Assembly (NCBI GenBank): GCA_026391215.1
Contig: JAPLDX010000065.1
Location: 330-64,329, forward strand
Source of the DNA: Bacteroidia bacterium
Lineage (GTDB): Bacteria > Bacteroidota > Bacteroidia > Bacteroidales > VadinHA17
Length of the DNA: 64,000 bases
Direction: 5' to 3'
This document shows positions 13,151-40,375 of this stretch, in pieces (position 1 is the stretch's first letter; each line of letters starts with the position of its first letter). The notes under the pieces were generated by a model. It worked only from the letters and a program-made list of their open reading frames with translations, made no database searches and was not told the origin of the DNA. The position numbers and the translations under genes were made by a program.

Positions 13151-13867
13151 CTACACGGTAAATAATTTTCTTGCTTCTTCAAGATTCTCAGGGGTTCCGA
13201 CATTTACCCAGTAACCGCTGTCGTCTCTTAAAGTGAATATTTCATGGCTTGAAGCAAGCTGAAGATAGAGAGCTGTCATTGTGTAAACACCATTGCTCAT
13301 ATAGTCGAATATTTCAGGATTTATGATATGTCTTCCTGAAAAAGCTATCTCGGACAGATTCTCTGTTTCCTCACAGGCAATGATCCTTTCCCCCGTTGAT
13401 TTATTGCACCATCCTTTCAATAAACCCTCCTTATCAACAAGCAGATACCTTGTCCCCTCGCGGTTCCTGACAGCAAGGGTTGCCAGTCCCTTCATTTTAA
13501 GATGGTACCGGTACAATGCAGTAAGATCCAGATTAGTCAGTGTATCAGCATTACATAAAAGAAAAGGGGCGCTGTCAAAAAATCTCCTGGCTTTATATAA
13601 TCCTCCTCCGGTTTCGAGAAGCATATCCCGTTCATCCGAAACAGTGATCTTAAATCCATCCTTTCTAAGTCTTTCCGCCTCCTCCTCGACCATATCTGCA
13701 AGATGGTGGACATTTATTATGATGTCGTCAAATCCTGATGCTGTGCAACTCTCTACAGCCATACGGAGTAAGCTCTTTCCGTTTATATCAAGGAGAGCTT
13801 TGGGAATTGTTTCTGCGATTTTACCGAGCCGTGTGCCTTTTCCGGCTGCAAGGATCATTGCTTTCAT
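13151..13867 (-). CDS. murU: MurNAc-alpha-1-phosphate uridylyltransferase-like nucleotidyltransferase
   Basis: MKAMILAAGKGTRLG..IPKALL sugar-1-P nucleotidyltransferase signature. Sits immediately downstream of an AmgK-like kinase, the known amgK-murU arrangement. Confidence 0.7.
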   Translation of the reverse strand: MKAMILAAGKGTRLGKIAETIPKALLDINGKSLLRMAVESCTASGFDDIIINVHHLADMVEEEAERLRKDGFKITVSDERDMLLETGGGLYKARRFFDSAPFLLCNADTLTNLDLTALYRYHLKMKGLATLAVRNREGTRYLLVDKEGLLKGWCNKSTGERIIACEETENLSEIAFSGRHIINPEIFDYMSNGVYTMTALYLQLASSHEIFTLRDDSGYWVNVGTPENLEEARKLFTV

Positions 13868-13877
13868 TGGCAGAAAA

Positions 13878-14912
13878 TTATTGAGGCTGTGAAGAGAGCT
13901 TTTTGAACAGCTGGGAATCCGGGATTGCCCTTACAGTACTATATAGCTCAGGCAGGGCAACATGGTTTTCAGCCTGGCTTATTATCTGTGTAAGCAGATG
14001 GACACCCGGCACTATGCTTTCCGTAAATGTAGGCTTCTGTTCATACAGTCCCCTGAATCCAAAAGCTCCGAGCGCCTGCATAACCCGTATCATGCTGAAG
14101 CCGGAATAGTAACCTTTGAATTTATTCTTATCCTCATTAGAAACTGAACAGAATTTATCAATAAAATAATCGAGAAGCTCATTCCTGTCAGACTGCAGCA
14201 TTGGGATCTTGGCATCATATAAAAGAGATGCAACATCATACTGGGGCGCTCCCTTCCTGCCGCCCTGATAATCAATGAACCATGGCTCGTTCCCGACTAC
14301 CATTACATTTGCTGTCTGAAAGTCCCTGTAAAGGAAATAGTCCTGGCCAGTTTCAAGCAAATAATCGGCCAGCGAGACAAAATCGTGTTCCAGGTTCCGT
14401 TCATTAAAGGGAACCGCCAGAAGCTTGAGAAGCATGTATTTGAAATAGTTAAGATCCCACATCATTGACTGGCGGTCAAAGCTGCGGTGCGGGTAACAAA
14501 GATCAAGGTTAAGACCTTTAATGCCTTCGATCTGAAAAAGTATCAGCCTATCAAGTATTTTCCGGTAAAGATCCTTTGTCTCCGGATTGAAATCTGTAAT
14601 ATCGGATCTGCTATGGAGCCAGGTATAAAGATTTATATCGCCAAGATCCTTCAGATAATAGACGAACTTATCAGGAAGATATCCGTAAATCTCCGGTACA
14701 GGAAGACCTTTCGCAATGAAATGGTTGGTGAAACCCACAAAAGCTTCATTTTCTTCAAGGTTTGGGTTATAGGCGCCGATAATGCTCTTACCGGATTCAG
14801 TTATCCTGAAATATCTCCTGTCTGAACCTGACCTGGGAAGAGGTGTTATCTTCAGATCAGAACCACCAAACAATTCTTTGTAACCTTCTGATATTATGTC
14901 AATCTCAGTCAT
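13878..14912 (-). CDS. amgK: Anomeric MurNAc/GlcNAc kinase-like phosphotransferase (APH family)
   Basis: Aminoglycoside-phosphotransferase-like fold (..LYRDFQTANVMV..WFIDYQGGRKGAPQYDVASLL) paired with murU. Confidence 0.65.
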   Translation of the reverse strand: MTEIDIISEGYKELFGGSDLKITPLPRSGSDRRYFRITESGKSIIGAYNPNLEENEAFVGFTNHFIAKGLPVPEIYGYLPDKFVYYLKDLGDINLYTWLHSRSDITDFNPETKDLYRKILDRLILFQIEGIKGLNLDLCYPHRSFDRQSMMWDLNYFKYMLLKLLAVPFNERNLEHDFVSLADYLLETGQDYFLYRDFQTANVMVVGNEPWFIDYQGGRKGAPQYDVASLLYDAKIPMLQSDRNELLDYFIDKFCSVSNEDKNKFKGYYSGFSMIRVMQALGAFGFRGLYEQKPTFTESIVPGVHLLTQIISQAENHVALPELYSTVRAIPDSQLFKKLSSQPQ

Positions 14913-14982: not shown

Positions 14983-15026
14983 CCTTTGTACCCTTGAACC
15001 GTTGAACCATTGCACCTTTGTACCAT
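14983..15026 (-). repeat. 8-nt degenerate tandem array (CAANGG core) abutting the stop of 15026..16135
   Basis: Plus strand CCTTTGTA CCCTTGAA CCGTTGAA CCATTGCA CCTTTGTA CCATTA. In gene sense this reads TAATGG TACAAAGG TGCAATGG TTCAACGG TTCAAGGG TACAAAGG. Confidence 0.9.
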
Positions 15027-16135
15027 TAGAGTTTTATCAGGATCTTCTTTTTATATAAAATTAAAGCAATTAACCATATCAAAAGTACCTGTATTAATGC
15101 AAACATAAGGCTTCCTATCATATTTCCAGCAACAGGGACACAAACATGCGAATAAAACCAGTTATAAAGAGTAACCTTTTCATCTCCGACCGGGATCTTA
15201 ATGAACAACATCAGTCTTGTCCATATACCTGCAAGGAAATAAGAAAACAGGGCATTCATGCCAAATACTGTGAAGAAGGTTCCCCACTTCTGGAATCTGA
15301 GCACATCTGCAAGAAAATATATTGCAGCAAGAACTGCCATTGCCCATCCTGCTGTATAGAGCACATATGAACTCGTCCATATCGGCTTGTTGATCGGGAA
15401 AAGCATACTCCATAAAAGACCAAGTCCTATTGAAGAAGCCCCGAGCAGGAGGAGCTTCAGGACTGTTTTGCCTGAAGGTGTCTCTTTTCCCAGCATTTCT
15501 CCTATGAAATAACCGATAATGACAGTGCATATTGCGGGCAGAGTACTAAGCAGACCCTCGGGATCAAAAGGTCTCCCGAATTCCTTGTACATGTGGTTTG
15601 TTCCCAGTATTGCAGCATCCATTTTCTGCACAAAATTTCCTTCGAGACTAAAGGGATCATATCCTCCGAGAAATGCCAGCAATGCCCAGTAGAGCAACAG
15701 GAGAGCTGCTGCAACTATCCAAAGATACTGACGCCTGACAGTCAGACATATTATAGCGCCCAGACCATAAGCAATGGCGATTCGCTGCAGAACGCCCATT
15801 ATCCTGAGTGTTGAATAGTCCCTGTTGAAATAAGGAAATATTGCAAGGAAAAGGCCAACGGCAAATATGGTCACCATGCGTCTGAATATTCTGAACAGGG
15901 ATCCGGCATTTATTTCATGTCCGTATTTTTTAAAGGAGTACCACATTGAGACGCCCACGATGAAAAGGAAGAACGGGAATACAAGGTCGGTTGGTGTGCA
16001 TCCGTTCCACGCTGCATGACGTAATGGCGGATATACATAAGTCCAGCTTCCGGGAGTGTTCACAATGATCATAAAGGCGATCGTCATACCCCTGAAAATA
16101 TCGAGTGAAACAAGCCGGTTACTGCTTTTTGCCAT
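15026..16135 (-). CDS. DUF5009 / HGSNAT-like polytopic membrane acyltransferase
   Basis: RLVSLDIFRGMTIAFMIIVNTPGSW..HAAWNGCTPTDLVFPFFLFIVGVS resembles heparan-alpha-glucosaminide N-acetyltransferase-type proteins; multiple TM segments. Confidence 0.6.
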   Translation of the reverse strand: MAKSSNRLVSLDIFRGMTIAFMIIVNTPGSWTYVYPPLRHAAWNGCTPTDLVFPFFLFIVGVSMWYSFKKYGHEINAGSLFRIFRRMVTIFAVGLFLAIFPYFNRDYSTLRIMGVLQRIAIAYGLGAIICLTVRRQYLWIVAAALLLLYWALLAFLGGYDPFSLEGNFVQKMDAAILGTNHMYKEFGRPFDPEGLLSTLPAICTVIIGYFIGEMLGKETPSGKTVLKLLLLGASSIGLGLLWSMLFPINKPIWTSSYVLYTAGWAMAVLAAIYFLADVLRFQKWGTFFTVFGMNALFSYFLAGIWTRLMLFIKIPVGDEKVTLYNWFYSHVCVPVAGNMIGSLMFALIQVLLIWLIALILYKKKILIKL

Positions 16136-16183
16136 GACACATTATTATTAAAACGTATAAAAATAACATTATAGGTCTTAAGA

Positions 16184-17341
16184 TCAGTCGCGGAACATTT
16201 TTATTTTTTCGGTTATACCTATTCCCGGTCTTTCATTAAGCGTAATCCTGCCATCGATGACGGTAACACCTTCATAGCAATCATTGCTTATCAGGAGATT
16301 GCCGTCCAGGTCAGCCCAGTGAGCCAGGGGTGAGAGCTGCGCTGCAGCCGATATTGCACAGGAAGTCTCTGTCATACACCCTATCATCACCTTCATTCCC
16401 ATCTCTCTTGCCAAAGTCGCCATCTTGTATGCAGCATTCATTCCTCCGCATTTCATAAGCTTGATGTTTATGGCGGAATAGACACCTTTCATCGGGAGAA
16501 GATCATCTATTGTCTGTAAAGCCTCATCTGCAACAACCGGGATGGGCGAATTTTCTGTAAGCCATGCAATGTCATCGATCATTGTTTTTGGCATCGGCTG
16601 TTCAAGAAAAGCCACATTGTTTTCCTTTAGCCAGTTTGCCATTTCCAGGGCATAATTCCTGTCTTTCCATCCCTGGTTTACATCCACGCATATAGGCTTA
16701 TCGGAAACGCTCCTGATAGTTTCTATCATCTCCCTGTCATTGCCAAGCCCAAGCTTTACTTTAAGGATTTTATATGGTTCTGCTTCAGCAACTTTCTGCC
16801 GGACTACTTCCGGAGTGTCAATGCCGATCGTAAAGCTTGTAAAAGGAGTTTTCCCGGGATCAAGGCCCCAGAGCCTGAACCAGGGCTTTCCTATCAGCTT
16901 TCCGACAAGGTCGTGCAGTGCAATATCAACTGAGGCTTTCGCAGCATAGTTACCGGGTTGGATCCCGTCAAGATACGCAACTATGTCCTCAATGAGGAAA
17001 GGGTCCTTAAACTGCTCCAGATTAACCTGTGAAAGAAATTTTGTTGCGGTATCATAGCTTTCACCAAGATAAGGAGGCATTGAGGCTTCACCGAAGCCTT
17101 TTTTCCCGTCGTACTCAATTTCCGTCAGCACGACAGGTGTGGTTGTCCTTGAACTGGTTGCAAGCGTAAACACATGTTTAAGCTTAAGCTCATACGGTAT
17201 AAACCTGAGCTTCATAGTTGTACTCTTTCTTTTCATCGGAGTTATTGTTTTTACCGGTTCAGCAATCGCAGCAATTGACTTCCCTGAAATCATTGCCCCT
17301 GCAAGCAACGAACAGTATTTAAGAAATTCCCTTTTCTTCAT
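16184..17341 (-). CDS. Dipeptide (L-Ala-D/L-Glu type) epimerase, enolase superfamily, with N-terminal Tat/Sec-like extension
   Basis: KVKLG, DVNQGW, FLEQP and ADEA metal-ligand/catalytic blocks of MLE-subgroup epimerases. N-terminal MKKREFLKYCSLLAGAMISGKSIAAIA precedes the canonical MKLRF start. Confidence 0.75.
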   Translation of the reverse strand: MKKREFLKYCSLLAGAMISGKSIAAIAEPVKTITPMKRKSTTMKLRFIPYELKLKHVFTLATSSRTTTPVVLTEIEYDGKKGFGEASMPPYLGESYDTATKFLSQVNLEQFKDPFLIEDIVAYLDGIQPGNYAAKASVDIALHDLVGKLIGKPWFRLWGLDPGKTPFTSFTIGIDTPEVVRQKVAEAEPYKILKVKLGLGNDREMIETIRSVSDKPICVDVNQGWKDRNYALEMANWLKENNVAFLEQPMPKTMIDDIAWLTENSPIPVVADEALQTIDDLLPMKGVYSAINIKLMKCGGMNAAYKMATLAREMGMKVMIGCMTETSCAISAAAQLSPLAHWADLDGNLLISNDCYEGVTVIDGRITLNERPGIGITEKIKMFRD

Positions 17342-17342
17342 T

Positions 17343-18524
17343 TTACAGATTTATATACCAGCTGTGTAAAGCAACAGACTCTGTTCCCTTATGAGACTCC
17401 TCGCCTATGATCTTTCTTGCTCCCATTATGGTTTTTTTGAGATAACTGTTGAAGTTTGTCCGGGTAGAATCAAGGCTGTTTATCCTGACCATTCCGGAAG
17501 AATGAATTACTTCGGTATCTCCTATATACATTCCGACATGAGTTATTCTTTTTTCCCCATCATCATTAAGATGTCCGAAGAAGATAAGGTCACCCGGTTC
17601 AAGCGGTTCTATAGATGACGAAATATCTACAGGCTGCCCGTACAAAAACTGTTGTGAAGCGTCGCGGGCAAGAATAATGCCGCCTGTGAAATATATTGTC
17701 TTGACAAATCCGCTGCAGTCAGCTGCTTTAGTAGATGTTCCTCCCCACATGTAAGGCGAGCCGTTAAGCGATTTCGCAAATGCTGTGAATTTGTCGGCTT
17801 CAGGTTTTATGGAAGAACACCATTCATTAAATCCGATAGCATCTTTTTTATTTATAATACCGTATCTCCCGTCAGGAATCTCTACTCTAAAGAAGTCCCT
17901 GCCTTCAGAAATAATTTCCAGAATTGCACCTGCAGTAATGTCGGAAACCACGCTTTTTGAGTCTGTTTCAGACAGGATATCGCCTGATTTACAGGTATAT
18001 ATTAATCTGTCTGATTGTTTCCATGCTCTCATTTCAGCTTCATTCATTTCACTGATCCCGCTGTCATTTGTCCAACCCAGGTAATGATCAGGTGTCTGGA
18101 TCAGAAACCAGCCATCGTCTTCTTTAAGGATCTTTACGGGTGTTCCCATTATAGCCTGTGAAACCTGTTCGCTTGAATAGGATGGTTTGCTTTTGATATT
18201 ACAGACACTTACCGTGACCAGCCCCCATGTCTTTTCTATTTCAGAAGTATCAGGAAGCATTTTCAGGCTGTCAATTATTTCCAGTCCCGTATTTCCAAGA
18301 TAGCTGAATATCTCATTTTTTGCTTCCGGCAGATTTGTTTCGCCTTTTATTACAAGGGCATCCTTTGTCAGCATTTTCACAGTGAATCTGCATATTCCCT
18401 CGCGCTTATCCGGGACCCATCTGACCGCAATTGAATTAACATCTTTTCGTACCTGAAGCGGTAGCTCATGGGAATTGCAGCCAGCGAGGCAGAGTAATGA
18501 AATAAAAATAACCTGGAGTCTCAT
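17343..18524 (-). CDS. NlpC/P60 (C40) peptidoglycan peptidase lipoprotein with SH3b-like domains
   Basis: Lipobox LLCLAGC. YMWGGTSTKAADCSGFV catalytic Cys block and HVGMYIGDTEVIHSS His block. YkfC-like pairing with the epimerase. Confidence 0.8.
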   Translation of the reverse strand: MRLQVIFISLLCLAGCNSHELPLQVRKDVNSIAVRWVPDKREGICRFTVKMLTKDALVIKGETNLPEAKNEIFSYLGNTGLEIIDSLKMLPDTSEIEKTWGLVTVSVCNIKSKPSYSSEQVSQAIMGTPVKILKEDDGWFLIQTPDHYLGWTNDSGISEMNEAEMRAWKQSDRLIYTCKSGDILSETDSKSVVSDITAGAILEIISEGRDFFRVEIPDGRYGIINKKDAIGFNEWCSSIKPEADKFTAFAKSLNGSPYMWGGTSTKAADCSGFVKTIYFTGGIILARDASQQFLYGQPVDISSSIEPLEPGDLIFFGHLNDDGEKRITHVGMYIGDTEVIHSSGMVRINSLDSTRTNFNSYLKKTIMGARKIIGEESHKGTESVALHSWYINL

Positions 18525-18601: not shown

Positions 18602-19058
18602 ATGAAAAACAGAATTCCTGAATTTATTACTGCTCTTATTATAATACATATCATGGCTGTATCCTGCAGCCGCACGGTGTGAGAGGAGAATTTACAGCAG
18701 GTGAGATCATTGGCTCTATAACTGACCCTGCAACAGGTCTTCCGGTTTTCAGCCGTATTACAGTGTTTCACAGGGTAATATGGTCCATGGGGTACAGATA
18801 CACCTGACCGACGTCAGGAAAGCTCCATTGTCGCTGATCCAGTTTTATATACTACAGGAAGCCCATAAGTTATGGCCGGAGAAGGATATATTTGCCATGA
18901 GTGAAGAATCAAGGCACGAAATGTTTGACAAGGTCTGCGGTACAGACCAGGTAAGAACCGAATTCACGAAGAATTGGACGATAGACTCTATTCCTGATCT
19001 TTGGACTGGAGATATTCCCGGTTTCAGGAAAAAAGTAAAGCCTTATCTCTTGTATTAA
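18602..19058 (+). pseudogene. Decayed DUF1343/NamZ-like (exo-beta-N-acetylmuramidase family) gene remnant
   Basis: Three fragments in three frames. Signal peptide MKNRIPEFITALIIIHIMAVSCSRTV* (18602-18682). GEFTAGEIIGSITDPATGLPVFS (18685 onward), like the ..AGE..D..TGLPVYS block. C-terminal 92 aa GVQIHLTDVRKAPLS..FDKVCGTDQVR..YLLY (18780-19058). About 300 aa of the central part are missing. Confidence 0.6.
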
Positions 19059-19071: not shown

Positions 19072-21399
19072 TTATCTCGTCTCTCCCTCCATGCTCTTTT
19101 CAAGCTCTCTTGCATGAGTCAGGAACTCATCAACTTTCATTTCTTTATGAAATATCATTCCATGTGTTGCGCGGATCTTCGGGCTTTCATGCTCATAGAA
19201 GAAATCCTTGCCAAGGACCAGCTGAACCTGTTTGAACTGTTCAACCCATATATGTTGCGAAAGGTCGCTGAATGGTCCGTCAAGCTCAAAACTCGGGAAT
19301 GAGGCATCAACCTGGCTGATGTAGCAATTTTTGAAGGATTTGTCCAGTACCGCCATTGAATTCAGCGATACGGGAGTGAATATATTAGCCTCCGATGGGT
19401 GGAATCTGAACCAGACATTTCTGTAACCAACGACTCTGACAGCGGACAGGTCTTTTTCCTGTTTCCACAGATCTAAAGCATGAGCCAGCGCCTGGAGCAC
19501 CTTATAATGGGTATCAGGTCCCGAGCCTTCAGGATCAAATGCAAGACTTACCACTGTCGGCTGTACACGCCTCAGCATATCCAGGATGGGTTCCACATCT
19601 CTTTTACCCTGAGGCTGTGAAGAAAAAATATCTCCTGAATAAAAGCCCAGCCGAAGGTGTTCTATATCCTTGACCTTAACTCCATAATGGGCCCACACGA
19701 GCTCTTCTTCAAATTCCCTGAGCATACCCTTAAGCTTCTGAATATCAGGAGGATTTTTCTCTCCGCTATAACTGGATTTCAGCAACTCAATATTTTTCTG
19801 AATCTGATCTTTCAGATCCTGAATGGATTTAAGCTTATAGACGTCAACCATTACTCTTATTATCCTGTGGCACACGCCTCTGAGTTTTCCTGCTTCGTCT
19901 TTAGCAGCAATCTTATCCAGGTAATGACTTACATCCTTGTCAAATTTATATTTATATCCCTGTTCGAAGAAATCAGGATATTCAATCATCCGTACCTTGC
20001 CTTGTTCAATGTGGTTCAGTGTTTCCTGCAGCAGGGTCTGTAACATAGTATTGGTAACAGAGTTGAATCCTGATGTAAATACTGCAAAATGAAAATTGTT
20101 GGATGCCACACGCAACTGTGGAATTATGCAAGGGAAAATTCCCAGCATTATATCGTCATGATGGGGTCCGGTATGAAGGAATGTCTGATCTTGTTCTTTC
20201 TTTTCACCGGCAATTATTTTATTTTTTGTCGATTCAATTACCTCTTTCACCCGGTCCATGCTCAGGTTTGGTATCAAACAGGCATACCTGTCATTTTTAA
20301 GGTCATCCGGTACCAGCTTATGAGCGTACTTATCAATATTCTGGCAAAGATCAAAAATTGCTTTTTCAGTCTTTTCAAAGGTCCATTCTCCTTCCTTATA
20401 GTACTTTTCAACGCTGTCATGAAGCAGAACTGCAGCTCCTTCAGTGAGGTAGAAACGTGCATTCTTCTGCCTCTGCAGGACTGTTGCAGGATAAAGGTTG
20501 TCCGGAGGATTTTCAAGGGCGTTTCTCACCACGGGTGCCTTGGCTTCACCTGCAGCAAAGACTATTGTCACGCCATCAGGATTGTATGTTATTGTGCCCA
20601 GTCCGACGGTAATCGCTAACCTGGTCCTTGATACTTCAATTCCTCCCAGATCGCCTGCTGATGCAGCCTGTGATTCGAAGTTGGTTGCAGTAAGACGGGT
20701 AGATGAATTATGATCACTGCCACGGGTGTTGAAAGCTATATGTCCGTCAGGACCCATTCCTCCAAGGAAAAAGCCGATCCCGCCCAGCTCTCTTACCCTG
20801 TTCTCATAGTTTGTGCACCAGTTGTCAATGCTGAAGAGAGAAGCCTGTTGCAGCCTCTCCACATGCGATGATGCTTCCCTGTTCCTTAGTGTCAGGTCAA
20901 TACGGCTGTCAGGAAATACCTCTGAATAATGTTTACCCAGTGGAAGAGTTATTTCATCAGCATTTATCAGCAATGCCCGTGCCGGATCCAGGTCAAATCC
21001 TTTTATATAGTAGTTAATCACAAAGTCATAAAAGCTGTTATGCTGTTTCGGATCAATAGGATAGAATTCATCCAGCTGGACAAAATGCAATCCTCTAAGA
21101 GAAGGCTTCTTGTTTAGCTGGAGTCCGTTTTTCTCCATCAGCAGACGGTTCTCCCTGGTGTTCCAGCCTTCAAGAAGTCTCCGCGTCCATTTTATGAAGT
21201 ACTCCGGGGTTTTTCCCGTGGGAAAACTTATAACTCCTTCAGGATTTTCATCCAGCCATTCGAGGAATCTAAGTGAAGTGAGCAATCCAAGATCGGGGAA
21301 ATTATGTACGATGATATAGGGGATTTTCGTGGAATATCCCTTTCTCCCTGAGCGGTCAAAAAAGGCCTGCTCTACACTTGATAATCCTTTGATCTTCAT
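19072..21399 (-). CDS. Glucosamine-6-phosphate deaminase-like domain fused to LmbE/PIG-L-like deacetylase domain
   Basis: N-terminal half carries GIGFFLGGMGPDGHIAFN (NagB signature). From about aa 405, FLHTGPHHDDIMLG (HxDD motif of PIG-L/LmbE deacetylases). Confidence 0.7.
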   Translation of the reverse strand: MKIKGLSSVEQAFFDRSGRKGYSTKIPYIIVHNFPDLGLLTSLRFLEWLDENPEGVISFPTGKTPEYFIKWTRRLLEGWNTRENRLLMEKNGLQLNKKPSLRGLHFVQLDEFYPIDPKQHNSFYDFVINYYIKGFDLDPARALLINADEITLPLGKHYSEVFPDSRIDLTLRNREASSHVERLQQASLFSIDNWCTNYENRVRELGGIGFFLGGMGPDGHIAFNTRGSDHNSSTRLTATNFESQAASAGDLGGIEVSRTRLAITVGLGTITYNPDGVTIVFAAGEAKAPVVRNALENPPDNLYPATVLQRQKNARFYLTEGAAVLLHDSVEKYYKEGEWTFEKTEKAIFDLCQNIDKYAHKLVPDDLKNDRYACLIPNLSMDRVKEVIESTKNKIIAGEKKEQDQTFLHTGPHHDDIMLGIFPCIIPQLRVASNNFHFAVFTSGFNSVTNTMLQTLLQETLNHIEQGKVRMIEYPDFFEQGYKYKFDKDVSHYLDKIAAKDEAGKLRGVCHRIIRVMVDVYKLKSIQDLKDQIQKNIELLKSSYSGEKNPPDIQKLKGMLREFEEELVWAHYGVKVKDIEHLRLGFYSGDIFSSQPQGKRDVEPILDMLRRVQPTVVSLAFDPEGSGPDTHYKVLQALAHALDLWKQEKDLSAVRVVGYRNVWFRFHPSEANIFTPVSLNSMAVLDKSFKNCYISQVDASFPSFELDGPFSDLSQHIWVEQFKQVQLVLGKDFFYEHESPKIRATHGMIFHKEMKVDEFLTHARELEKSMEGETR

Positions 21400-30754: not shown

Positions 30755-30791
30755 TCTTAATTAAAATTAGTGATAGGGATTGTTAAGAATC

Positions 30792-30930
30792 ATACCACCT
30801 CCCTCCCGACAAGTCGGGAGTACTCCTCCTCTCAAGAGGAGGAGAAAGTTAAATAAATTTATATTCAAAACTTTCCCCTCCTTTGAAAAGGAGGGGTGTC
30901 ATGCCCGAAGGGCCATGACGGGGTGGTTAT
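30792..30930. repeat. Nested-palindrome element, copy E (five hairpins)
   Basis: CTCCCGAC-AA-GTCGGGAG; CTCCTCCTCT-CAAG-AGAGGAGGAG; GAAAGTT..AACTTTC; CCCCTCCTT-TGAA-AAGGAGGGG; GTCATGCCC-GAA-GGGCCATGAC. Outer ACCACC/GGTGGT. Confidence 0.85.
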
Positions 30931-30956
30931 TACTATTTTTAATAAGTCTATTCATA

Positions 30957-32444: not shown

Positions 32445-32447
32445 GGT

Positions 32448-35400
32448 CTATTTTTCAAAATAGTTCAATATCTGCTTCATCAGCTGCTCCCGCTGCTTTT
32501 CATACAGGATAGTTTCAAACGGGAATCCCAATATTATTGTCTTATAGCTTCCCTTATACGCCACGCCTGCAGAGGCATTATTTTCAGAATAACGGAAAGA
32601 GCACACGGCTCCCTTTCCTGCAGGCTCAATTGCATCAGGTGCTTCAGCAGTATAAAGCGATGAAGAATAACCTGTATTAATTGTGATTTTCCCTGAAAAA
32701 TTACTCTTTGCATAATCGGTAGGATACACATCCCCCTCTTTGACCGAGTGGCCTGTCCGGTGCTGAAAATGAAGAGTATTTCCTGCAAATTTTATAGCAG
32801 TTGAGTCATTGGGTATGAACAGGTCGGATCCAATATAAGATCCTGACATAAAGATATTTGTACCGGAATTAGTCAATTCAACAATCTTTTGAATGAATTC
32901 TGGTGTATATATCCTGAAATCGTAACGGGAGGTGTCGTTGAAAAAAGGTGTGGTCCTTTCCTCGCCAAAGATCAGGTCGACCATATTGAAAGATGAGGCT
33001 GTTGAACCTGGTGATGTGAAATATTCATCTGAAACAGAATAAAATGAGTATCCTGCCGCCATGATGGCTTTACCATGAATATATGGAAAATCGAAACTGT
33101 TTCCCGGGATCACCTTTCCAGCCATGTCAGCATAGGACGCTCCCCAGCCCGGTGAGTCATCGTCAATCCATGGATTTTGCCTGTCAAAATCATACTGGTC
33201 TCCAAGGGTGATCATATCAAAATGATCTGCAACACCGAGATCATCCCACCAGGCAATGCCTGCCATTTTTCCCTCATCAAACCAGGCCGGTCCTGAGATA
33301 CGGTCAAATCCGTTCACAATGAGAACATTGCCCGACCCCCCTGAGCTGATGCCTGTAGAGAGTATCTCTGAATCAAAGCTTTCACCACCTTCATTGATTG
33401 CAGTTACTTTAAAACTGTAGATTGAATCATAAGAAACAAGCTCTATTTCTGCTGATGTGCCTTCCACTAAAAGTCCATTATCGAAGCCATTATCACCGAG
33501 CCTCGTATATATTTTATATCTGTCGGGGACTGAGGTGGTTTCACTCCCTTCAATAACTGGTTCCCATGAGAGCCTGACTGATTTTCCCTGCAGCGGATTA
33601 ATTGCCATGTGAGTGACAGGCAGAGGCTGAACCTTATAATCTCTCTTTTCGACATATGAGAGATATTTAAGGATGCCTTTATAAACGGAACGGCTGACTT
33701 CAAATCTGAATCTGGGATCGATCCAGAATCGCATATCTGCCAGGTTTTGGTGCGAAAGAAGCTCAAGAAGCATGGCAGGTACATTTGGTCTTCTTGCTTC
33801 TGAATAAGGTCTGTCCCATATTCCTCTTCCTGTCCAGTCCGGATTATATACTCTCCTGATATCATCAATGATCTGTGTCTGGACAATATCTGACAGATCC
33901 CTGCTTGCCATTCTGGAGGTACTATCAGGGAATTTACCATCATCGGCAGAGGTATAGCAAATTGCGAGCGTTCCGATTATTGAATCACCTGGTGTGATAC
34001 CAGCATCAGTATGGAAAGCAAGCGACAGATCGACCGGCAATCCAAGTCCCCGTGGCTGCTGTTCATTTCCGGGCTTATAGGGATCCCCCATCAGGTAATT
34101 CACCCAGAAACCCCTTGACTGGTAATCATCGTTATAATCATTTTTATAGGTATTCGGGCTGTAAACAAGTGTATCGGGCATGCCTGCATACTGAAGCCAG
34201 TATCTTGCCGCTTCAAGGAATCTTGGTTTCCCGCTTAGCTTCCAGCTGAAATCATCACTTTTCAGGAATTCCTGCTTTACAGTATCTGCGCTGTTTTCCT
34301 TAACAGACTGCTGGTTTTTCAATAGCTCCTGTGAGGGCCGTCGGGCTACATTGCCCATTCCTCCTCCGAATCTTACTGCATCCAGCGCAATAAGACCATT
34401 ACCCGTTTCAGATCCTTTCACAGTAACTGATCCGGTGCCCGCATTCTTACCTTTATTAAATCTGAAAGTCCCCAGATAGATCCATGTTTCACCACCTATT
34501 GCCTGATTTACAATATATTCTGTTTTTCCTCCTGTATGATTGACAATATATCTCACTGATTTATTATTATCCCGGAGCAATGGATATGATATACAGACAG
34601 CATAATCACCCTTTTCGGGAATTTCAGGGATGAAGACAGCAGAATCACAGGAAATACGGAGGGAAGTACCATGCTTAAACGGATTGAAACCAGGGAACAG
34701 GGTATCTGTAAGCAGAAATCCCTTAAATACTTCCTTCGCACTATCATTAAGATGTATTACAACTTCAGAATTACCAGTTGACCTGTCATTGTCTACAATA
34801 ACCTCATTTAACTGTGTGTCACGTTCCCGCGGCAGGTAAACAGCAGCGCCTGAATTCTCGAGCATCCTTGTCAGGTAAGGGACAACAAATCCTGTATTAG
34901 AAATGTCCTCGACAGTACCGAACAGTTTTGCACGCTGGTACTCCCACCGGTCAAGGCTCATTTCAAAATAATAGCCATGGCTGTTCCACAAAGCTATTGA
35001 ATTGCCTGTCAATCCTTTCTGAAATTCTTCTCCCTCTTTTTTTCTGACGAGAACAGGTTTTTCTTCCCTGGTGACAGGGAAGCGTGATGAATCAGTCAGT
35101 ATCTCTCTGCGATAGTAATTCGGGATAAGCTGGTCGAGGGAATAATTATTTGTAATGACTTCAATACTGTATTCCCGGAATTTTTTCCCTAGAGGTTTTC
35201 TGAAGGATTGCAAAAAAAGGTTATAGCTATCTTCCCTGAAAGGGTAATAAGATAATCCCGGTTTAAAGAAGAGTGTAATTTTTTCCGGATCCCTTGTGAC
35301 TAAAATTGAATCAATCTCAGGTTTGGCGATGTGCTGCCACTGTGTCAGGGGATTCTTCCAGCTTCTGAGTTTGTCCGTAACTGTCTGATTGAGCTTATCA

Positions 35401-35483
35401 CCAGACTGTGAATAAACGGTATTAAAACTTATCAGCAACAAAAAGAAAATGACTGAGAGGCAGCTTTTAAAGGTATTGCTCAT
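32448..35483 (-). CDS. Large secreted Amidase_3-like (MurNAc-L-Ala amidase family) protein with FN3 domain
   Basis: Signal peptide. The blocks ALWNSHGYY, VEDISNTGFVVPYLTRMLENSGAAVYLPRERD, LSLAFHTDAG and MLLELLSHQN parallel the HGG / E..N / SIHANA / VELGFxSN blocks of Amidase_3. FN3-like segment VRLSWEP..YKIYTR..FKVTAINEGGES. Confidence 0.5.
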   Translation of the reverse strand: MSNTFKSCLSVIFFLLLISFNTVYSQSGDKLNQTVTDKLRSWKNPLTQWQHIAKPEIDSILVTRDPEKITLFFKPGLSYYPFREDSYNLFLQSFRKPLGKKFREYSIEVITNNYSLDQLIPNYYRREILTDSSRFPVTREEKPVLVRKKEGEEFQKGLTGNSIALWNSHGYYFEMSLDRWEYQRAKLFGTVEDISNTGFVVPYLTRMLENSGAAVYLPRERDTQLNEVIVDNDRSTGNSEVVIHLNDSAKEVFKGFLLTDTLFPGFNPFKHGTSLRISCDSAVFIPEIPEKGDYAVCISYPLLRDNNKSVRYIVNHTGGKTEYIVNQAIGGETWIYLGTFRFNKGKNAGTGSVTVKGSETGNGLIALDAVRFGGGMGNVARRPSQELLKNQQSVKENSADTVKQEFLKSDDFSWKLSGKPRFLEAARYWLQYAGMPDTLVYSPNTYKNDYNDDYQSRGFWVNYLMGDPYKPGNEQQPRGLGLPVDLSLAFHTDAGITPGDSIIGTLAICYTSADDGKFPDSTSRMASRDLSDIVQTQIIDDIRRVYNPDWTGRGIWDRPYSEARRPNVPAMLLELLSHQNLADMRFWIDPRFRFEVSRSVYKGILKYLSYVEKRDYKVQPLPVTHMAINPLQGKSVRLSWEPVIEGSETTSVPDRYKIYTRLGDNGFDNGLLVEGTSAEIELVSYDSIYSFKVTAINEGGESFDSEILSTGISSGGSGNVLIVNGFDRISGPAWFDEGKMAGIAWWDDLGVADHFDMITLGDQYDFDRQNPWIDDDSPGWGASYADMAGKVIPGNSFDFPYIHGKAIMAAGYSFYSVSDEYFTSPGSTASSFNMVDLIFGEERTTPFFNDTSRYDFRIYTPEFIQKIVELTNSGTNIFMSGSYIGSDLFIPNDSTAIKFAGNTLHFQHRTGHSVKEGDVYPTDYAKSNFSGKITINTGYSSSLYTAEAPDAIEPAGKGAVCSFRYSENNASAGVAYKGSYKTIILGFPFETILYEKQREQLMKQILNYFEK

Positions 35484-35569
35484 CGGAGGTATATAAGGGT
35501 TGAAATTTAACTAATATTTATCAAATTTCTCAAGTTTATAAATTTGCATACGTCTTACGAATTTTCACC

Positions 35570-35577
35570 TATTTTTG
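35570..35577 (+). promoter_or_regulatory. Candidate -7 box (TATTTTTG) for murK-murQ-GH3 fusion; second match TAAATTTG at 35539-35546
   Basis: TAnnTTTG matches in the divergent 172-nt intergenic region. Confidence 0.4.
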
Positions 35578-35655
35578 TACTGAAAGATCCGGTTAAAAAA
35601 AATTGTGCGATATTAACGCACCTAAGTACAACAAAATAGTTAAGCATAATAATAT

Positions 35656-36510
35656 ATGATTCTCGTAGCCGATAGTGGTTCAACAAAAACTGAATGGAAA
35701 ACAATAACGGATGGCAAGCCTCAGGAGTCCCTTTTTTCCGGAGGCATCAATCCATATTTTCTTGCTGTTGATGACATCTATCTTCTATTAGAAAAAGAGG
35801 TTCCCGAATTCTCAGGACACCAATTTGATAAGATCTATTTTTATGGTACTGGCTGTAACAGTGAAGCAAAAAACGATATTGTGAGGAAAGCGATAAAACG
35901 TTTTTGCGCTGCCGGAGAAATTCATATAGATTCGGATCTTTTGGGTGCTGCCCGCTCACTGTGTCAGAATGACCGGGGCATTGCCTGTATCATGGGGACG
36001 GGTTCCAATTCATGTTATTATGACGGGAAGTCCATCGCAGCAAATGTATCTCCACTGGGGTACATACTCGGAGATGAAGGCGGAGGGGCGGTCATCGGGA
36101 GAAAACTGGTTTCGGCAGTACTGAAAAAACAGGTTCCTGACGATATAATTGAATTGTTCTTCAATACTTACCACATAACACCTGCAGAGATTCTTGAGAA
36201 AGTTTATATGAAACCTTTTCCCAACAGGTTTCTCGGACAGTTTGCCAAATTCATCTCGGCTAATATACATATAGCGGAACTACGGGATATCATCAGAACA
36301 AGTTTCGATGAATTCATAATTAGAAATATCCTCCAGTACCCTGAATCGGCTTCATTGCCAGTTCATTTTACAGGAAGCATATCCATCCATTTCAAATCTT
36401 TTCTTGAAGAATCACTGAAAAACCATAACCTCAGGCTGGGCAAGGTAACGTTATCTCCGATGGCTGACCTGATAAGTTACCACATCAATAATCTTGATCC
36501 TGCGAAATAA
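35656..36510 (+). CDS. murK: BadF/BadG/BcrA/BcrD-type sugar kinase (MurNAc/GlcNAc kinase-like)
   Basis: MILVADSGSTKTEWK N-terminus and GTGSNS block. Stop overlaps the murQ start (TAATG), as in the Tannerella murK-murQ pair. Confidence 0.6.
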   Translation: MILVADSGSTKTEWKTITDGKPQESLFSGGINPYFLAVDDIYLLLEKEVPEFSGHQFDKIYFYGTGCNSEAKNDIVRKAIKRFCAAGEIHIDSDLLGAARSLCQNDRGIACIMGTGSNSCYYDGKSIAANVSPLGYILGDEGGGAVIGRKLVSAVLKKQVPDDIIELFFNTYHITPAEILEKVYMKPFPNRFLGQFAKFISANIHIAELRDIIRTSFDEFIIRNILQYPESASLPVHFTGSISIHFKSFLEESLKNHNLRLGKVTLSPMADLISYHINNLDPAK

Positions 36511-37352
36511 TGGCTAAACCCGAAAAAAATCAACGACAGGTCAGCATTACAGAATCATCTTCAAATTTCGATAATCTTGAGAAGATGAGCGTAAATGAAT
36601 TGCTGAAGAATATCAACCAGGAAGATTCAAAAGTGCATATTGCGGTCAGGAAAGTGATTCCCCAGATTGAGAAGCTGATATCCAGGATTGTCGGAAGGAT
36701 GAAGAAAGGCGGGCGTATATTTTACCTGGGTGCCGGCACCAGCGGGAGGCTTGGCGTTCTTGATGCATCAGAGATCCCTCCTACTTTCGGGATTCCGGGC
36801 ACAATGGTCATTGGATTGATTGCCGGGGGAGAAACTGCCCTGCGTCATGCAGTGGAAGCTGCTGAGGATGATCTCAGTAAAGCATGGAAAGAACTGGAGA
36901 TCTTCAATATCAATAAAAAGGACACTGTTATAGGCATTGCCGCATCAGGCACTACTCCATACGTCTTAGGAGGAGTAATGAAAGCAAGAGAAAATGGTAT
37001 ACTCACAGGATGCATAACCTGCAATCCTGGAAGCCAGCTGGCAAAAGCAGCGGAAGTACCTATAGTAGTTGTTGTGGGACCGGAATTTGTCACCGGAAGC
37101 ACCCGGATGAAAGCAGGCACCGCCCAGAAGATGATACTGAACATGATCACAACTACAGTTATGATAAAGCTTGGCAGGGTCAAAGGCAACAAAATGGTCA
37201 ATATGCAGCTGACGAACAGGAAACTCATTGACCGTGGCACGCGGATGATAGTTGAGGAGTTGAATATACAGAGAGAGGCAGCAAGGCTGCTGCTGCTTCA
37301 GAATGGTTCAGTAAAAAAAGCGCTTGAATCTTACCGAAAGAATGCCCGGTAG
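36510..37352 (+). CDS. murQ: N-acetylmuramic acid 6-phosphate etherase
   Basis: SIS domain GAGTSGRLGVLDASEIPPTFG..GIAASGTTPYV..TGSTRMKAGTAQK. Confidence 0.9.
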   Translation: MAKPEKNQRQVSITESSSNFDNLEKMSVNELLKNINQEDSKVHIAVRKVIPQIEKLISRIVGRMKKGGRIFYLGAGTSGRLGVLDASEIPPTFGIPGTMVIGLIAGGETALRHAVEAAEDDLSKAWKELEIFNINKKDTVIGIAASGTTPYVLGGVMKARENGILTGCITCNPGSQLAKAAEVPIVVVVGPEFVTGSTRMKAGTAQKMILNMITTTVMIKLGRVKGNKMVNMQLTNRKLIDRGTRMIVEELNIQREAARLLLLQNGSVKKALESYRKNAR

Positions 37353-37387
37353 ACAGATGGAAGACACGTTTTGTAATAATTAAGATA

Positions 37388-40375
37388 ATGTACCGTAAGT
37401 CATCTAAAAACATATTGCTCTTTCTTCTTTTCATGTCAGCCAACGGGCTTCATGCCCAGAAAACTGATCCTCCTTTTTTAAAGTATTTGAATCATCCCTG
37501 GGTTGATTCCGTTTATAATACTCTTTCACAGGAAGAGCGGATTGCACAACTTATCTGGATTGATGCTTATTCAAACCGGGAGATCGGCCACGAGGTGTAC
37601 CTTGCAAATGTCATCAGAAAAATTGGTGTTGGAGGAGTGATCTTTTTTGAGGGATATACCTCTAAGCAGACGGAAATGCTTAATTATTTCCAGAAGATCT
37701 CAAGGGTGCCGCTGATATTTGCAGAAGACGGTGAATGGGGTCTGGGAATGAGGCTGGAGGGGGTTGTAAAGTTCCCTTACCAGATGACTCTTGGCGCCAT
37801 ACGGGATGATTCACTTATCTACAGAATGGGGAAAGCTGTTGCCGGTCAATTTAAAAGAGCAGGCGTTCATATAAATCTGGCGCCTGTGGCTGATGTAAAT
37901 ATCAATCCGCATAATCCTGTGATAAACTACAGATCATTCGGTGAAGATCCTGAAAATGTAAGCAAAAAAACACTCATGTATATGAATGGCTTGCAGGATA
38001 ATGGAATAATCGCGACAGCAAAGCATTTTCCGGGACATGGCGATACAGAAACTGATTCCCATCTCAGCCTACCCGTCATCAGGCAGACAAGAGCAAGAAT
38101 TGATACAGTGGAACTGGTTCCTTTCAGGTCACTGATTGATGCAGGTGTGACATGTATCATGCCGGGTCATCTGAACATCCCGTCCCTCGACTCAACTCCG
38201 GGACTTCCTTCCACATTATCATTTCCGATGCTTACCCAACTGCTCAGAAACGAGTTATCGTTCAAAGGACTGATAATTTCGGATGCAATGAATATGGCAG
38301 GCATTACAAATTATCCTGCCAGGGAAGGGGCTGGTGTAGTGTCATTAAAAGCCGGTATGGATATACTAGAATATGTGGAGGATCCTGAACGTACGCTGAA
38401 AGAAATTACAGAAGCCATTAAGAAAGGATTGATATCACAGGATTTAATAAATGAAAAATGCCGTAAGGTGATTGCAGCTAAATTCTGGGCCGGACTGAAC
38501 CTTCCGGGGTATGTAAATGAAGAAAAACTGCAGGAGGATCTTTCTGGTCCGGAAACAAAAGCTCTGATAAGGGAATTGTACGCCAGTGCGATGACGGTGT
38601 TAAGGAATGAAAATAATATCCTTCCTGTAAAGAATCTGGACAAGATCAGAATAGCATCAGTTTCAATAAATAAAAACAGAACCACAGTATTTCAAAGCAG
38701 GATCTCAGAATATAATCCTGCAGATAATTTTACAATTGATCCTGCAAATAGTGCGGCTGCTGATGAACTGCTCAAAAAGCTGTCAGGTTATGATCTGGTA
38801 ATTGCAGGGATTTACGGAATTGATCAGCGTCCGCAGACAGGCTTTGGCATTACACCCGAACTGACCAGTTTCGTAAGTAAACTGATTGATAATCACCGGA
38901 CTATAATTACCTGGTTTGGAAATCCCTATGCTGTTGAGAGGATCAAATCGCTGAAAGATGCTGAAGGACTCGTACTTGCGTACCAGGAAAATGAATTCAC
39001 AGAAGATCTGTCTGCACAGCTCATCTTCGGAGGTATAGGTGCCAGAGGCTCGCTTCCGGTTACAATAAATGAATTGTGGCCATACGATTTCGGCATAATA
39101 ACCCCGGGCAATATCAGGATGCAGTACGGACTCCCGGAAAATGCAGGAATGTCATCTTTATTTCTTGAAGAAAAAATCGATTCAGTAGTGAATATCGGAC
39201 TTACAGCCAAAGCATTTCCCGGCTGTGAGGTGATGGTTGCCAGAAAAGGGATGGTTGTTTTCCACAAGACTTATGGTTACCATGATTATGACAACAGGAT
39301 AAGTGTAAGTGAGGACGATCTTTTTGACCTGGCATCTGTTACGAAAGTCTCCTCTACCCTCGCAGGCCTGATGCTTCTTGACACCGAAGATAAGTTCTCA
39401 CCTGATGAGACCCTTGGCAGCTATCTGCCTTTTTACAAAAACTCCAATAAGGAAGATCTTCTGATGGCAGATATCCTTACTCACCAGGCCGGACTTATAT
39501 CATGGATACCATTCTGGAAGGAAACTGTAAAAAAAAACGGGGAGTTTAAGAAGACTATCTACAGCTACAAATCCTCTGAAAAGTATCCGCTGGAAGTTGC
39601 ACAGTGGCTCTTTATAAATGACAACTACAGGAAGAAGATCTTCAATGAAATAAAGAAATCACCGCTTGGTGAAAAGAAGTATCTCTACTCAGATCTTGCC
39701 TTTATTATTTCACCGGAGATAATAGAAAAACTAACAGGCGAAAAATGGTACGAATATGTTACCTCCAATATCTATCACAAGCTTGGAGCCTATGACATCT
39801 GCTTCAATCCATGGATGAAATATCCTCTGAGCCGGATAGTACCTACAGAATATGATTCACTTTTCCGTAAGCAGCAGTTGCATGGCACAGTGCATGATGA
39901 GGGAGCTGCCATGCTGGGCGGCATATCCGGACATGCAGGATTGTTTGCTACTGCCAACGACCTGATGAAACTGATGGAGCTTTATCGCAGGATGGGATCT
40001 TATGGAGGCGAACAGATAATAGGAAAAGACGTTCTTGAAAAATATACATCTGTACAGTTCCCGGAAAATGATAACAAGCGCGGGCTGGGATTTGACAAGC
40101 CTCCTCTGAATAATGCTGAATTACCTGCGGAAGATGCCTATCCGGCAAAAGATGCTTCACCTTCAAGTTTCGGACATTCAGGATATACTGGGACATTCGT
40201 GTGGATGGATCCTGAATATGAAATAAGCTATATCTTCCTGAGCAACAGGGTAAATCCAACCAGAAACAATAATCTTTTATCCGAGCTTAACATAAGAGGG
40301 AAGATACTTCAGACGATTTATGATTCAATAATAGATAGAAAAGGCCGGACTGAAAATATCAATCCGGCTTTCTAA
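37388..40375 (+). CDS. Secreted GH3 beta-N-acetylglucosaminidase (NagZ-like) fused to a class C beta-lactamase/serine-hydrolase domain
   Basis: Signal peptide. GH3 blocks ..KHFPGHGDTETDSH.. and ..IISDAMNMAG. C-terminal half with ASVTKV (SxxK), YSD and GHSGYTG (KTG-like) motifs. Confidence 0.75.
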   Translation: MYRKSSKNILLFLLFMSANGLHAQKTDPPFLKYLNHPWVDSVYNTLSQEERIAQLIWIDAYSNREIGHEVYLANVIRKIGVGGVIFFEGYTSKQTEMLNYFQKISRVPLIFAEDGEWGLGMRLEGVVKFPYQMTLGAIRDDSLIYRMGKAVAGQFKRAGVHINLAPVADVNINPHNPVINYRSFGEDPENVSKKTLMYMNGLQDNGIIATAKHFPGHGDTETDSHLSLPVIRQTRARIDTVELVPFRSLIDAGVTCIMPGHLNIPSLDSTPGLPSTLSFPMLTQLLRNELSFKGLIISDAMNMAGITNYPAREGAGVVSLKAGMDILEYVEDPERTLKEITEAIKKGLISQDLINEKCRKVIAAKFWAGLNLPGYVNEEKLQEDLSGPETKALIRELYASAMTVLRNENNILPVKNLDKIRIASVSINKNRTTVFQSRISEYNPADNFTIDPANSAAADELLKKLSGYDLVIAGIYGIDQRPQTGFGITPELTSFVSKLIDNHRTIITWFGNPYAVERIKSLKDAEGLVLAYQENEFTEDLSAQLIFGGIGARGSLPVTINELWPYDFGIITPGNIRMQYGLPENAGMSSLFLEEKIDSVVNIGLTAKAFPGCEVMVARKGMVVFHKTYGYHDYDNRISVSEDDLFDLASVTKVSSTLAGLMLLDTEDKFSPDETLGSYLPFYKNSNKEDLLMADILTHQAGLISWIPFWKETVKKNGEFKKTIYSYKSSEKYPLEVAQWLFINDNYRKKIFNEIKKSPLGEKKYLYSDLAFIISPEIIEKLTGEKWYEYVTSNIYHKLGAYDICFNPWMKYPLSRIVPTEYDSLFRKQQLHGTVHDEGAAMLGGISGHAGLFATANDLMKLMELYRRMGSYGGEQIIGKDVLEKYTSVQFPENDNKRGLGFDKPPLNNAELPAEDAYPAKDASPSSFGHSGYTGTFVWMDPEYEISYIFLSNRVNPTRNNNLLSELNIRGKILQTIYDSIIDRKGRTENINPAF

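Follow-up and report, generated by a model that had tools for sequence, protein, structure and literature searches.

The window described here is a stretch of 64,000 nucleotides from an uncultured Bacteroidia bacterium of soil or sediment (Bacteroidota; Bacteroidales; VadinHA17), taken from contig JAPLDX010000065.1 (C128:330-64329) of a 3.39 Mb assembly with 135 contigs and a completeness of 98.9%. Between its positions 13151 and 40375 lies a 27-kb cluster of genes predicted to handle fragments of peptidoglycan and its sugar N-acetylmuramic acid (MurNAc). An initial annotation had counted eighteen genes in three transcription units there; the cluster and its coordinates prove real in the open reading frame (ORF) listing, and gene orientation and spacing do define three units, but the count comes down to 16 intact ORFs of 238-1011 amino acids and one deleted namZ pseudogene. 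Pfam, NCBIfam and PDB searches upheld nearly all of the earlier domain calls, the LmbE half of a NagB fusion excepted. The genes present, how they are ordered and conserved, their signal-like N-termini and which genes the genome as a whole has or lacks were established from the DNA itself, and functions were predicted from homology. Taken together, they make it likely that this is an accessory, modular peptidoglycan-fragment locus, an enlarged relative of the salvage operon of Tannerella forsythia, in a bacterium that would still make its own wall precursors. What is new is the organisation of the locus; the underlying salvage system was already known, and the locus reveals neither a new lifestyle nor a new kind of system.

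The first unit reads on the minus strand from 35483 to 19072 and comprises eight genes, encoding in turn a giant multidomain protein, a family 2 glycosyltransferase (GT2), a DUF4922 protein, a SpoIID-like protein, a fusion of a family 9 glycoside hydrolase with a family 4 carbohydrate esterase (GH9-CE4), the permease AmpG, an oxidoreductase with flavin adenine dinucleotide (FAD) and iron-sulfur (Fe-S) domains, and a NagB fusion. Their intergenic gaps measure -4 to 27 nt with a single exception of 202 nt, which at 30755-30956 is the sole sizeable break in this 16-kb minus-strand gene string. The second unit, also on the minus strand (18524 to 13151), holds five genes, for an NlpC/P60 lipoprotein, a dipeptide epimerase, a DUF5009 membrane protein, an AmgK-like kinase and a MurU-like uridylyltransferase, with gaps of 1, 48, 113 and 10 nt. 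The third, on the plus strand (35656 to 40375), contains three, for a MurK-like kinase, the etherase MurQ and a GH3 fusion, and it diverges from the first across an intergenic region of 172 nt (35484..35655) presumed to hold the promoters of both operons. Cluster genes are single-copy in the genome apart from paralogues of the FAD/Fe-S oxidoreductase, the DUF5009 protein and NamZ; weak partial matches (at most 30% identity) were found only to the NlpC/P60, SpoIID and GH3 proteins.

The giant protein (32448..35483, minus strand, 1011 aa, exported) combines an Amidase_3 fold, a Golvesin_C domain resembling a carbohydrate-binding module (CBM), FN3 domains and a C-terminal alpha/beta domain, and is a homologue of the T. 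forsythia "xanthan lyase" Tanf_08345. Its earlier description as an Amidase_3-like giant is borne out by a Pfam match of 28.9 bits, by structural neighbours and by conserved metal and catalytic residues. An AlphaFold2 (AF2) model built from 30 orthologues (predicted local distance difference test, pLDDT, 75; predicted template modelling score, pTM, 0.77) led Foldseek to the Amidase_3 structures 4rn7 and 7rag_B, to FN3 domains and to the CBM-like domain of 6f2p, while H491, D493, E574 and H578, as well as the motifs AFHTDAG and LLELLSHQN, are invariant across those orthologues. An identity as a xanthan lyase was considered and rejected: PDB gave one sequence match only, to xanthan lyase 6f2p in the C-terminal region where that enzyme resembles a carbohydrate-binding domain, and this match covers only the CBM-like domain of about 100 aa, and the label carried by Tanf_08345 looks like a by-product of that domain. 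Also rejected was the idea that the two large ORFs on the minus strand at 30957-35483 are SusC and SusD; they encode the GT2 and the amidase-fold multidomain protein.

Three proteins without export signals follow. The soluble GT2 glycosyltransferase (30957..32444, minus strand, 495 aa) has its Glycos_transf_2 domain at residues 251-385, and no domain was detected in residues 1-245. The cytoplasmic DUF4922 protein (29843..30754, minus strand, 303 aa; PF16269, E 1.6e-63) is a HIT enzyme of the GalT/GDP-hexose-phosphorylase type with an HFHFQ motif at residue 147; DUF4922 is a domain of the VTC2/GDPGP1 nucleoside-diphosphate (NDP)-hexose phosphorylases (PMC7041677, PMC11047344). The SpoIID/LytB-like protein (28500..29846, minus strand, 448 aa; TIGR02669 172 bits, above cut-off) lacks a signal peptide, and a 4-nt overlap between its start and the stop of DUF4922 couples the two genes translationally. 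No export signal was found on any of the three in any relative examined, from Bacteroidales to Neomarinimicrobiota. Signal-less relatives of the SpoIID-like protein span Bacteroidales, Saprospiraceae and Neomarinimicrobiota, a cytoplasmic SpoIID homologue being unexpected.

Further predicted wall-degrading enzymes carry signal peptides. The GH9-CE4 fusion (26019..28490, minus strand, 823 aa; CelD_N, Glyco_hydro_9 and Polysacc_deac_1) has only GH9 endoglucanases as PDB neighbours, so that its specificity is not deducible. The GH3 fusion (37388..40375, plus strand, 995 aa) joins a NagZ-type glycosidase (Glyco_hydro_3, E 6e-77), recognizable by the NagZ signature KHFPGHGDTETDSH, to a beta-lactamase-fold domain (Beta-lactamase, PF00144, E 2.5e-42) with an SVTK motif, whose PDB neighbours are esterases only. 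The same architecture is known from a characterised Rhodothermus enzyme, RmNag3 (PMC6987092), and AmiE of Bacillus subtilis, an exo-MurNAc-L-Ala amidase, is a PF00144 protein (PMC10653849); we infer a NagZ plus AmiE-like fusion, the amidase part following from Pfam family membership (PMC10653849).

Two genes standing 1 nt apart form a pair of YkfC/YkfB type. The NlpC/P60 lipoprotein (17343..18524, minus strand; NLPC_P60, SH3_3, SH3_16 and YkfC SH3b2) is a predicted gamma-D-Glu-diamino-acid endopeptidase with SH3b domains, a lipoprotein-like signal ending in LAGC and its catalytic Cys within DCSGF. The L-Ala-D/L-Glu-type epimerase (16184..17341, minus strand; MR_MLE domains) matches the Bacteroides thetaiotaomicron dipeptide epimerase 3iji with 505 bits in an alignment that begins at residue 43. 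The epimerase start lies 42 codons ahead of the conserved body, and this extension carries a signal resembling those of twin-arginine translocation (Tat), with KREFLK in the window and TRRKFLK in a relative (L046). Since the Tat-like signal is conserved in relatives, L-Ala-D-Glu would seem to be epimerised in the periplasm. Signal peptides on the giant, GH9-CE4 and GH3 proteins, the lipoprotein signal of the NlpC/P60 protein and the Tat-like epimerase signal form a pattern that is conserved in relatives. The initial annotation had spoken of an extracellular stage; these are ordinary signal, lipoprotein or Tat-like peptides, no secretion domain was detected on the exported cluster enzymes, and most simply the enzymes would be periplasmic or surface-bound.

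For uptake the cluster offers AmpG (24341..26008, minus strand, 555 aa; MFS_1), a predicted muropeptide/disaccharide permease of the AmpG family. It is syntenic with the characterised TfAmpG of T. forsythia by way of a Barnesiella locus (L063) with SpoIID and NamZ neighbours, and TfAmpG transports disaccharides of N-acetylglucosamine (GlcNAc) and MurNAc, both GlcNAc-MurNAc and its anhydro form GlcNAc-anhMurNAc (PMC7670621). The second candidate is a polytopic membrane protein of the DUF5009/NagX family (15026..16135, minus strand, 369 aa; NCBIfam NagX), whose relatives carry DUF5009 (PF16401). Its function would be one of two, MurNAc import as by MurT or that of a transmembrane N-acetyltransferase. 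In Barnesiella L063 a homologue with 40% identity takes the place of murT immediately upstream of murK-murQ, and a protein search returned relatives named only "DUF5009" or "predicted acyltransferase", so that MurT is a putative identity.

Sugar catabolism begins in the third unit. The MurK-like protein (35656..36510, plus strand, 284 aa), a predicted MurNAc 6-kinase of the MurK/K1058 family, aligns over residues 1-277 with the T. forsythia kinases in PDB, at 249 bits with K1058 (8oqw/8ow9, E 1e-73 to 8e-73) and 223 bits with MurK (8oqk, E 1e-65 to 5e-65), and reaches 267 bits with PG1100. The adjoining MurNAc-6-phosphate etherase MurQ (36510..37352, plus strand, 280 aa) passes both NCBIfam cut-offs (PRK05441, 374 bits against 168; TIGR00274, 313 bits against 302). 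In the first unit, the two-domain NagB-like protein (19072..21399, minus strand, 775 aa) pairs a glucosamine-6-phosphate deaminase fold with a C-terminal domain of the PRK02122 family (NCBIfam: PRK02122 185 bits, nagB 87 bits). The FAD-linked oxidase-Fe-S/CCG fusion next to it (21427..24339, minus strand, 970 aa; FAD_binding_4, FAD-oxidase_C and Fer4) has YdiJ as its best NCBIfam family (583 bits against a cut-off of 1350) and a 54%-identical paralogue on contig C85. A NagA-like gene lies outside the cluster and scores 222.6 bits, just below its cut-off.

The anabolic pair closes the second unit. The AmgK-like protein (13878..14912, minus strand, 344 aa) has the APH fold (PF01636) of a putative anomeric MurNAc/GlcNAc kinase, keeps the catalytic motifs YRDFQTAN and IDYQ, and finds its best PDB match in the APH-fold structure 3csv. 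Its homologues outside the genus, in other families of the order, have open frames of 470-508 aa, against 344 aa in the window, which implies that they contain one more domain, of about 140 aa. Ten nucleotides separate this gene from that of the cytoplasmic MurU-like protein (13151..13867, minus strand, 238 aa; NTP_transferase), a predicted MurNAc-alpha-1-phosphate uridylyltransferase whose best PDB match is Pseudomonas putida MurU 4y7t (E 1e-24), followed by another MurU, 8hhd.

Between the two minus-strand units are the remains of namZ, a gene for an exo-muramidase of family GH171 (18602..19058, plus strand). What can still be traced of the 416-aa orthologues is limited to residues 1-23, 85-111 and 310-416, in three different frames. 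In the DNA alignment the 5' part is degraded, and an internal deletion of about 612 nt with a clean junction joins gene nucleotide 333 to nucleotide 946 (window position 18753). The orthologues are intact in the closest relatives, and two intact NamZ paralogues exist elsewhere in the genome, on contigs C122 and C120, the C120 copy being without a signal peptide.

The closest known system is that of T. forsythia, where a single GppX-regulated mRNA carries "xanthan lyase", gtf, gtf, lytB, ampG, namZ1, murT, murK and murQ (PMC5388701, PMC7670621, PMC10465942). This operon corresponds to Tanf_08345-08385, with a second MurNAc kinase, K1058, directly upstream (PMC10465942; bioRxiv 10.1101/2021.12.02.470905). 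The initial annotation had supposed that in T. forsythia the modules are split over several loci, which this nine-gene transcript shows to be wrong for uptake, catabolism and the genes it had called unknown. The latter, namely GT2, DUF4922, the DUF5009 protein and namZ, have identifiable relatives and are already represented in that operon, the DUF5009 protein by murT as its putative counterpart, and the window GT2 and DUF4922 genes are its two "gtf" genes, whose function was stated to be unknown (bioRxiv 10.1101/2021.12.02.470905). A synteny comparison, which had been proposed as a check, finds the same core in the same order in the window: giant "xanthan lyase"-like protein, GT2, DUF4922 ("gtf"), LytB/SpoIID, AmpG and NamZ. 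A MurK-family kinase beside the giant gene and a MurQ occur in both, and the order published for T. forsythia recurs in Barnesiella L063, with a membrane protein at the murT-type position.

The two clusters also differ. In the window, GH9-CE4 is inserted between SpoIID and AmpG, murK-murQ diverge from the giant gene in company with the GH3 fusion, whereas murT-murK-murQ form the 3' end of the operon in T. forsythia, and the DUF5009 gene sits in the second minus-strand unit. The namZ that follows ampG is a pseudogene, unlike the functional NamZ1. Relative to T. forsythia, the additions are GH9-CE4, the FAD/Fe-S oxidoreductase, the NagB fusion, the YkfC/YkfB pair and AmgK-MurU.

How widespread is this arrangement? 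A scan with AmpG led to 70 loci in uncultured Bacteroidales from soil, sediment and lake habitats; in 33 of these at least 9 kb is available on both sides of AmpG, and the giant protein, GT2, DUF4922 and SpoIID accompany it in 30-32 of the 33. This gene order is far beyond chance and recurs in dozens of species-level genomes. The AmpG-centred salvage operon thus occurs in free-living Bacteroidales of soil and sediment, beyond the oral auxotroph T. forsythia. Could the giant protein, GT2 and DUF4922 form a biosynthetic module for surface glycans or protein glycosylation, merely co-transcribed with the salvage genes? Proteins such as a GT2 and a nucleotide-sugar HIT enzyme are typical of biosynthesis, and the T. 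forsythia operon has been termed "glycosylation-related", with gene functions unknown (PMC5388701; bioRxiv 10.1101/2021.12.02.470905). However, in those 30-32 loci the module is collinear and translationally coupled with the SpoIID-like and AmpG genes, in different families and even in Neomarinimicrobiota, no flippase, polymerase or lipid-carrier genes were found nearby, and the "xanthan lyase" of the module owes its name to the CBM-like domain only and has an amidase fold. We therefore find a biosynthetic role improbable.

Close relatives show two layouts, a long one as in the window and a short one without GH9-CE4, the oxidoreductase, the NlpC/P60 and epimerase genes, and in-cluster murK-murQ. 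In the most closely related genomes AmgK borders the cluster; more distant genomes have it at a distance of 930 kb or on other contigs, and one from Barnesiella lacks it. Within the genus, sampled as 37 species including the window genome, AmgK is present in all 37, MurQ in 19 and this AmpG in 13. Wherever AmpG is present in the genus, it is 5-19 kb from AmgK; three genomes have MurQ 5-12 kb from AmgK and no AmpG, and several genomes that are 98-100% complete and in few contigs lack AmpG. In some genomes of the genus, G041 (C19:752-8488) and G031 (C12), the AmpG/AmgK genes are fragmented or hold many stop codons, which suggests a decaying locus, long-read assembly errors being a possible alternative. 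The locus is thus a mosaic anchored on the core AmgK-MurU pair, and the window is near its fullest state. Because its distribution in the genus is so patchy, it is best seen as an accessory nutritional or salvage trait and not as a housekeeping function or an obligate dependence. The variation across the 37 species amounts to a natural experiment on the contribution of each module.

This distribution bears on a second explanation, namely housekeeping recycling of the cell's own wall turnover, as in the AmpG pathway of Escherichia coli and Pseudomonas, without feeding on foreign peptidoglycan. AmpG, NagZ, MurQ, AmgK and MurU all belong to the classical recycling repertoire, the organism builds its wall itself, and AmgK is universal in the genus. 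Yet AmpG is missing from 24 of the 37 genomes, nearly complete ones in few contigs among them, and MurQ from 18, which makes both too dispensable for such a role. AnmK, needed for anhydro-muropeptides, is absent (no PF03702 match in the genome; a B. thetaiotaomicron control genome was likewise negative). Moreover, most of the degradative enzymes are exported and exo-acting, and are paired with full catabolism to fructose-6-phosphate and pyruvate. Own-wall recycling as the whole purpose of the locus therefore appears unlikely, though somewhat conceivable.

The initial annotation had instead raised the possibility of a MurNAc auxotroph, and had pointed to murA, murB and glmS as the genes to look for. 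All three are present as intact frames above their curated cut-offs (452, 252 and 809 bits, respectively), so the organism is not a MurNAc auxotroph; T. forsythia, in contrast, is one. The resemblance of the locus to that of auxotrophic T. forsythia (PMC5388701) and its unusually complete gene set speak for a life as an auxotroph or obligate necrotroph dependent on exogenous wall material. Against this stand the three intact genes, the accessory nature of the cluster within the genus and the decay of its namZ, and we consider such a dependence extremely improbable. The broader suggestion made there, of a specialist on exogenous wall material or a necrotroph, is conceivable, though the patchy occurrence across the genus points to an accessory trait and not to an obligate way of life.

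How, then, would the genes of an accessory salvage locus work together? The four stages proposed earlier (breakdown, uptake, catabolism and anabolic bypass) fit the evidence from hidden Markov models, PDB matches and motifs. In the periplasm or at the surface, the exported giant protein with its Amidase_3 fold would strip stem peptides off the glycan, which the NagZ and AmiE-like GH3 fusion would trim from the non-reducing end with the help of NamZ from the surviving paralogues; GH9-CE4 may handle some modified glycan. The YkfC-like lipoprotein would cut free stem peptides to L-Ala-D-Glu, and the Tat-exported epimerase would turn this into L-Ala-L-Glu. At the inner membrane, AmpG would import disaccharides of the GlcNAc-MurNAc type, and the DUF5009 protein probably MurNAc. 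In the cytoplasm, MurK and then MurQ would produce GlcNAc-6-phosphate and D-lactate, from which the NagB fusion and the FAD/Fe-S oxidoreductase would yield fructose-6-phosphate and pyruvate. In competition with this catabolism, AmgK and then MurU would re-use MurNAc as UDP-MurNAc. Both predicted fates of MurNAc are indeed encoded within one block, as had been noted, and because the catabolic and re-use genes belong to different transcription units, the two could be regulated separately. In T. forsythia, deletion of murK shifts MurNAc towards wall synthesis (PMC5790795).

Several results weigh against this reconstruction. Four of its proteins score below the NCBIfam equivalog cut-offs of the families that match them best: AmpG (subfamily TIGR00901, 153 bits against 350), the DUF5009 protein (NagX, its best match, 152 against 480), the MurU-like protein (MurU, its best NCBIfam family, 128 against 250) and above all the AmgK-like kinase, whose only specific NCBIfam matches are a pair of AmgK models, one with 46 bits (cut-off 550) and one with 34 bits, both far short of their cut-offs, and which is the weakest assignment in the cluster. 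The proposed NagB-LmbE fusion held for its first half, where PDB NagB matches and Foldseek agree on a NagB fold. For the second half the evidence diverges: Pfam PIG-L was undetected there even at E<=1, the AF2 model is poor (pLDDT 57) and Foldseek found no other fold, while this half aligns with PRK02122 positions 421-592 (E 1e-19) and GPHHDD is invariant in 23 orthologues. From this match and motif only, the domain is possibly a deacetylase of LmbE type. The oxidoreductase is taken to be a D-lactate (2-hydroxy-acid) dehydrogenase from context, since D-lactate is the product of MurQ. AnmK, which would bring anhydro-MurNAc into the AmgK-MurU route, is absent, so that the reconstruction does not account for the fate of this sugar, and no cytoplasmic enzyme splitting GlcNAc-MurNAc was identified. 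The in-cluster namZ is dead, even though NamZ yields the AmpG substrate in T. forsythia, and no outer-membrane importer was found within the cluster.

It is precisely the lack of AnmK and of a cytoplasmic GlcNAc-MurNAc-splitting enzyme that makes the GT2, DUF4922 and SpoIID-like trio interesting. Free of export signals and conserved with AmpG, the three proteins probably act on the imported disaccharide, and their strict linkage to AmpG makes them the leading candidates for cytoplasmic steps still missing from the pathway. One could go further, take the GT2 as an inverting enzyme and the DUF4922 protein as an NDP-sugar phosphorylase or transferase, and see in the trio the missing cytoplasmic salvage step of Bacteroidota, namely a non-hydrolytic splitting of GlcNAc-MurNAc or an opening of GlcNAc-anhMurNAc; this proposal is a long shot. 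One speculative option within it would be a GT2 running in reverse and coupled to phosphorolysis of the NDP-sugar, the net result being an energy-conserving phosphorolysis. If true, this would account for the use of AmpG substrates by organisms that lack both AnmK and a NagZ in the cytoplasm.

Pseudomonas is not known to possess MurQ catabolism, which in the window block coexists with AmgK-MurU. As in Pseudomonas, the gene for an APH-fold kinase adjoins that of a minimal sugar-1-phosphate uridylyltransferase, the nearest structure being the P. putida enzyme named above. The Pseudomonas shortcut combines AmgK-MurU with AnmK and MupP, according to what PMC5790795 and PMC8054146 cite from Gisin 2013 and Borisova 2017. 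The window genome differs in having no AnmK and in AmgK and MurU matches that lie far below the equivalog cut-offs. It has also been reported that organisms with the anabolic route mostly have no NamZ (PMC8054146); unlike that pattern, relatives of the window genome carry NamZ and the anabolic route in one cluster.

The ykfABCD genes of B. subtilis are peptide genes, and a YkfC-type endopeptidase and a YkfB-type epimerase are common to that organism and the window. The window epimerase differs by its Tat-like signal. The B. subtilis operon murQ-murR-murP-amiE-nagZ-namZ (PMC8054146, PMC10653849) shares with the window the logic of an exported exo-acting NagZ, a beta-lactamase-fold domain of AmiE type, NamZ and a cytoplasmic MurQ. 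In the window, however, one fusion protein unites NagZ with the AmiE-like domain, an architecture shared with RmNag3 of Rhodothermus (PMC6987092), and uptake would proceed through AmpG and the DUF5009 protein, not through a phosphotransferase system. The consolidation of AmgK-MurU, YkfC/YkfB, NagZ with its AmiE-like domain, GH9-CE4, the NagB fusion and the oxidoreductase in one block is specific to the lineage. In one genus, a single mosaic locus has come to unite import, breakdown of the sugars, the handling of peptides and the shortcut to UDP-MurNAc.

As for regulation, no regulator, of GppX type or any other, was found among the genes directly flanking the cluster (window 9147-47763). Two TAnnTTTG motifs, a Bacteroidetes motif, occur on the plus strand at 35539 and 35570, upstream of murK; they give a weak positional hint only, the count of this motif over the whole window being not above chance as judged from shuffled sequence. 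Sigma-70 and terminator scans likewise gave no enrichment over shuffled sequence.

The surroundings of the cluster are unrelated to it. On the left are TrkH and polyamine-type genes. Further out, at 930-8790 on the minus strand, lie two ORFs of great length (1596 and 924 aa) in which Pfam recognises nothing but a C-terminal Peptidase_S74 intramolecular-chaperone domain, a type found in tailspikes and endosialidases; they too seem to have no connection with the cluster. Its right-hand boundary is formed by a pair of tRNA-Leu genes (GAG and CAG; 40376-40665, minus strand), which come right after the stop of the GH3 fusion and are followed by genes for an aspartokinase and a pyridoxal-phosphate-dependent decarboxylase.

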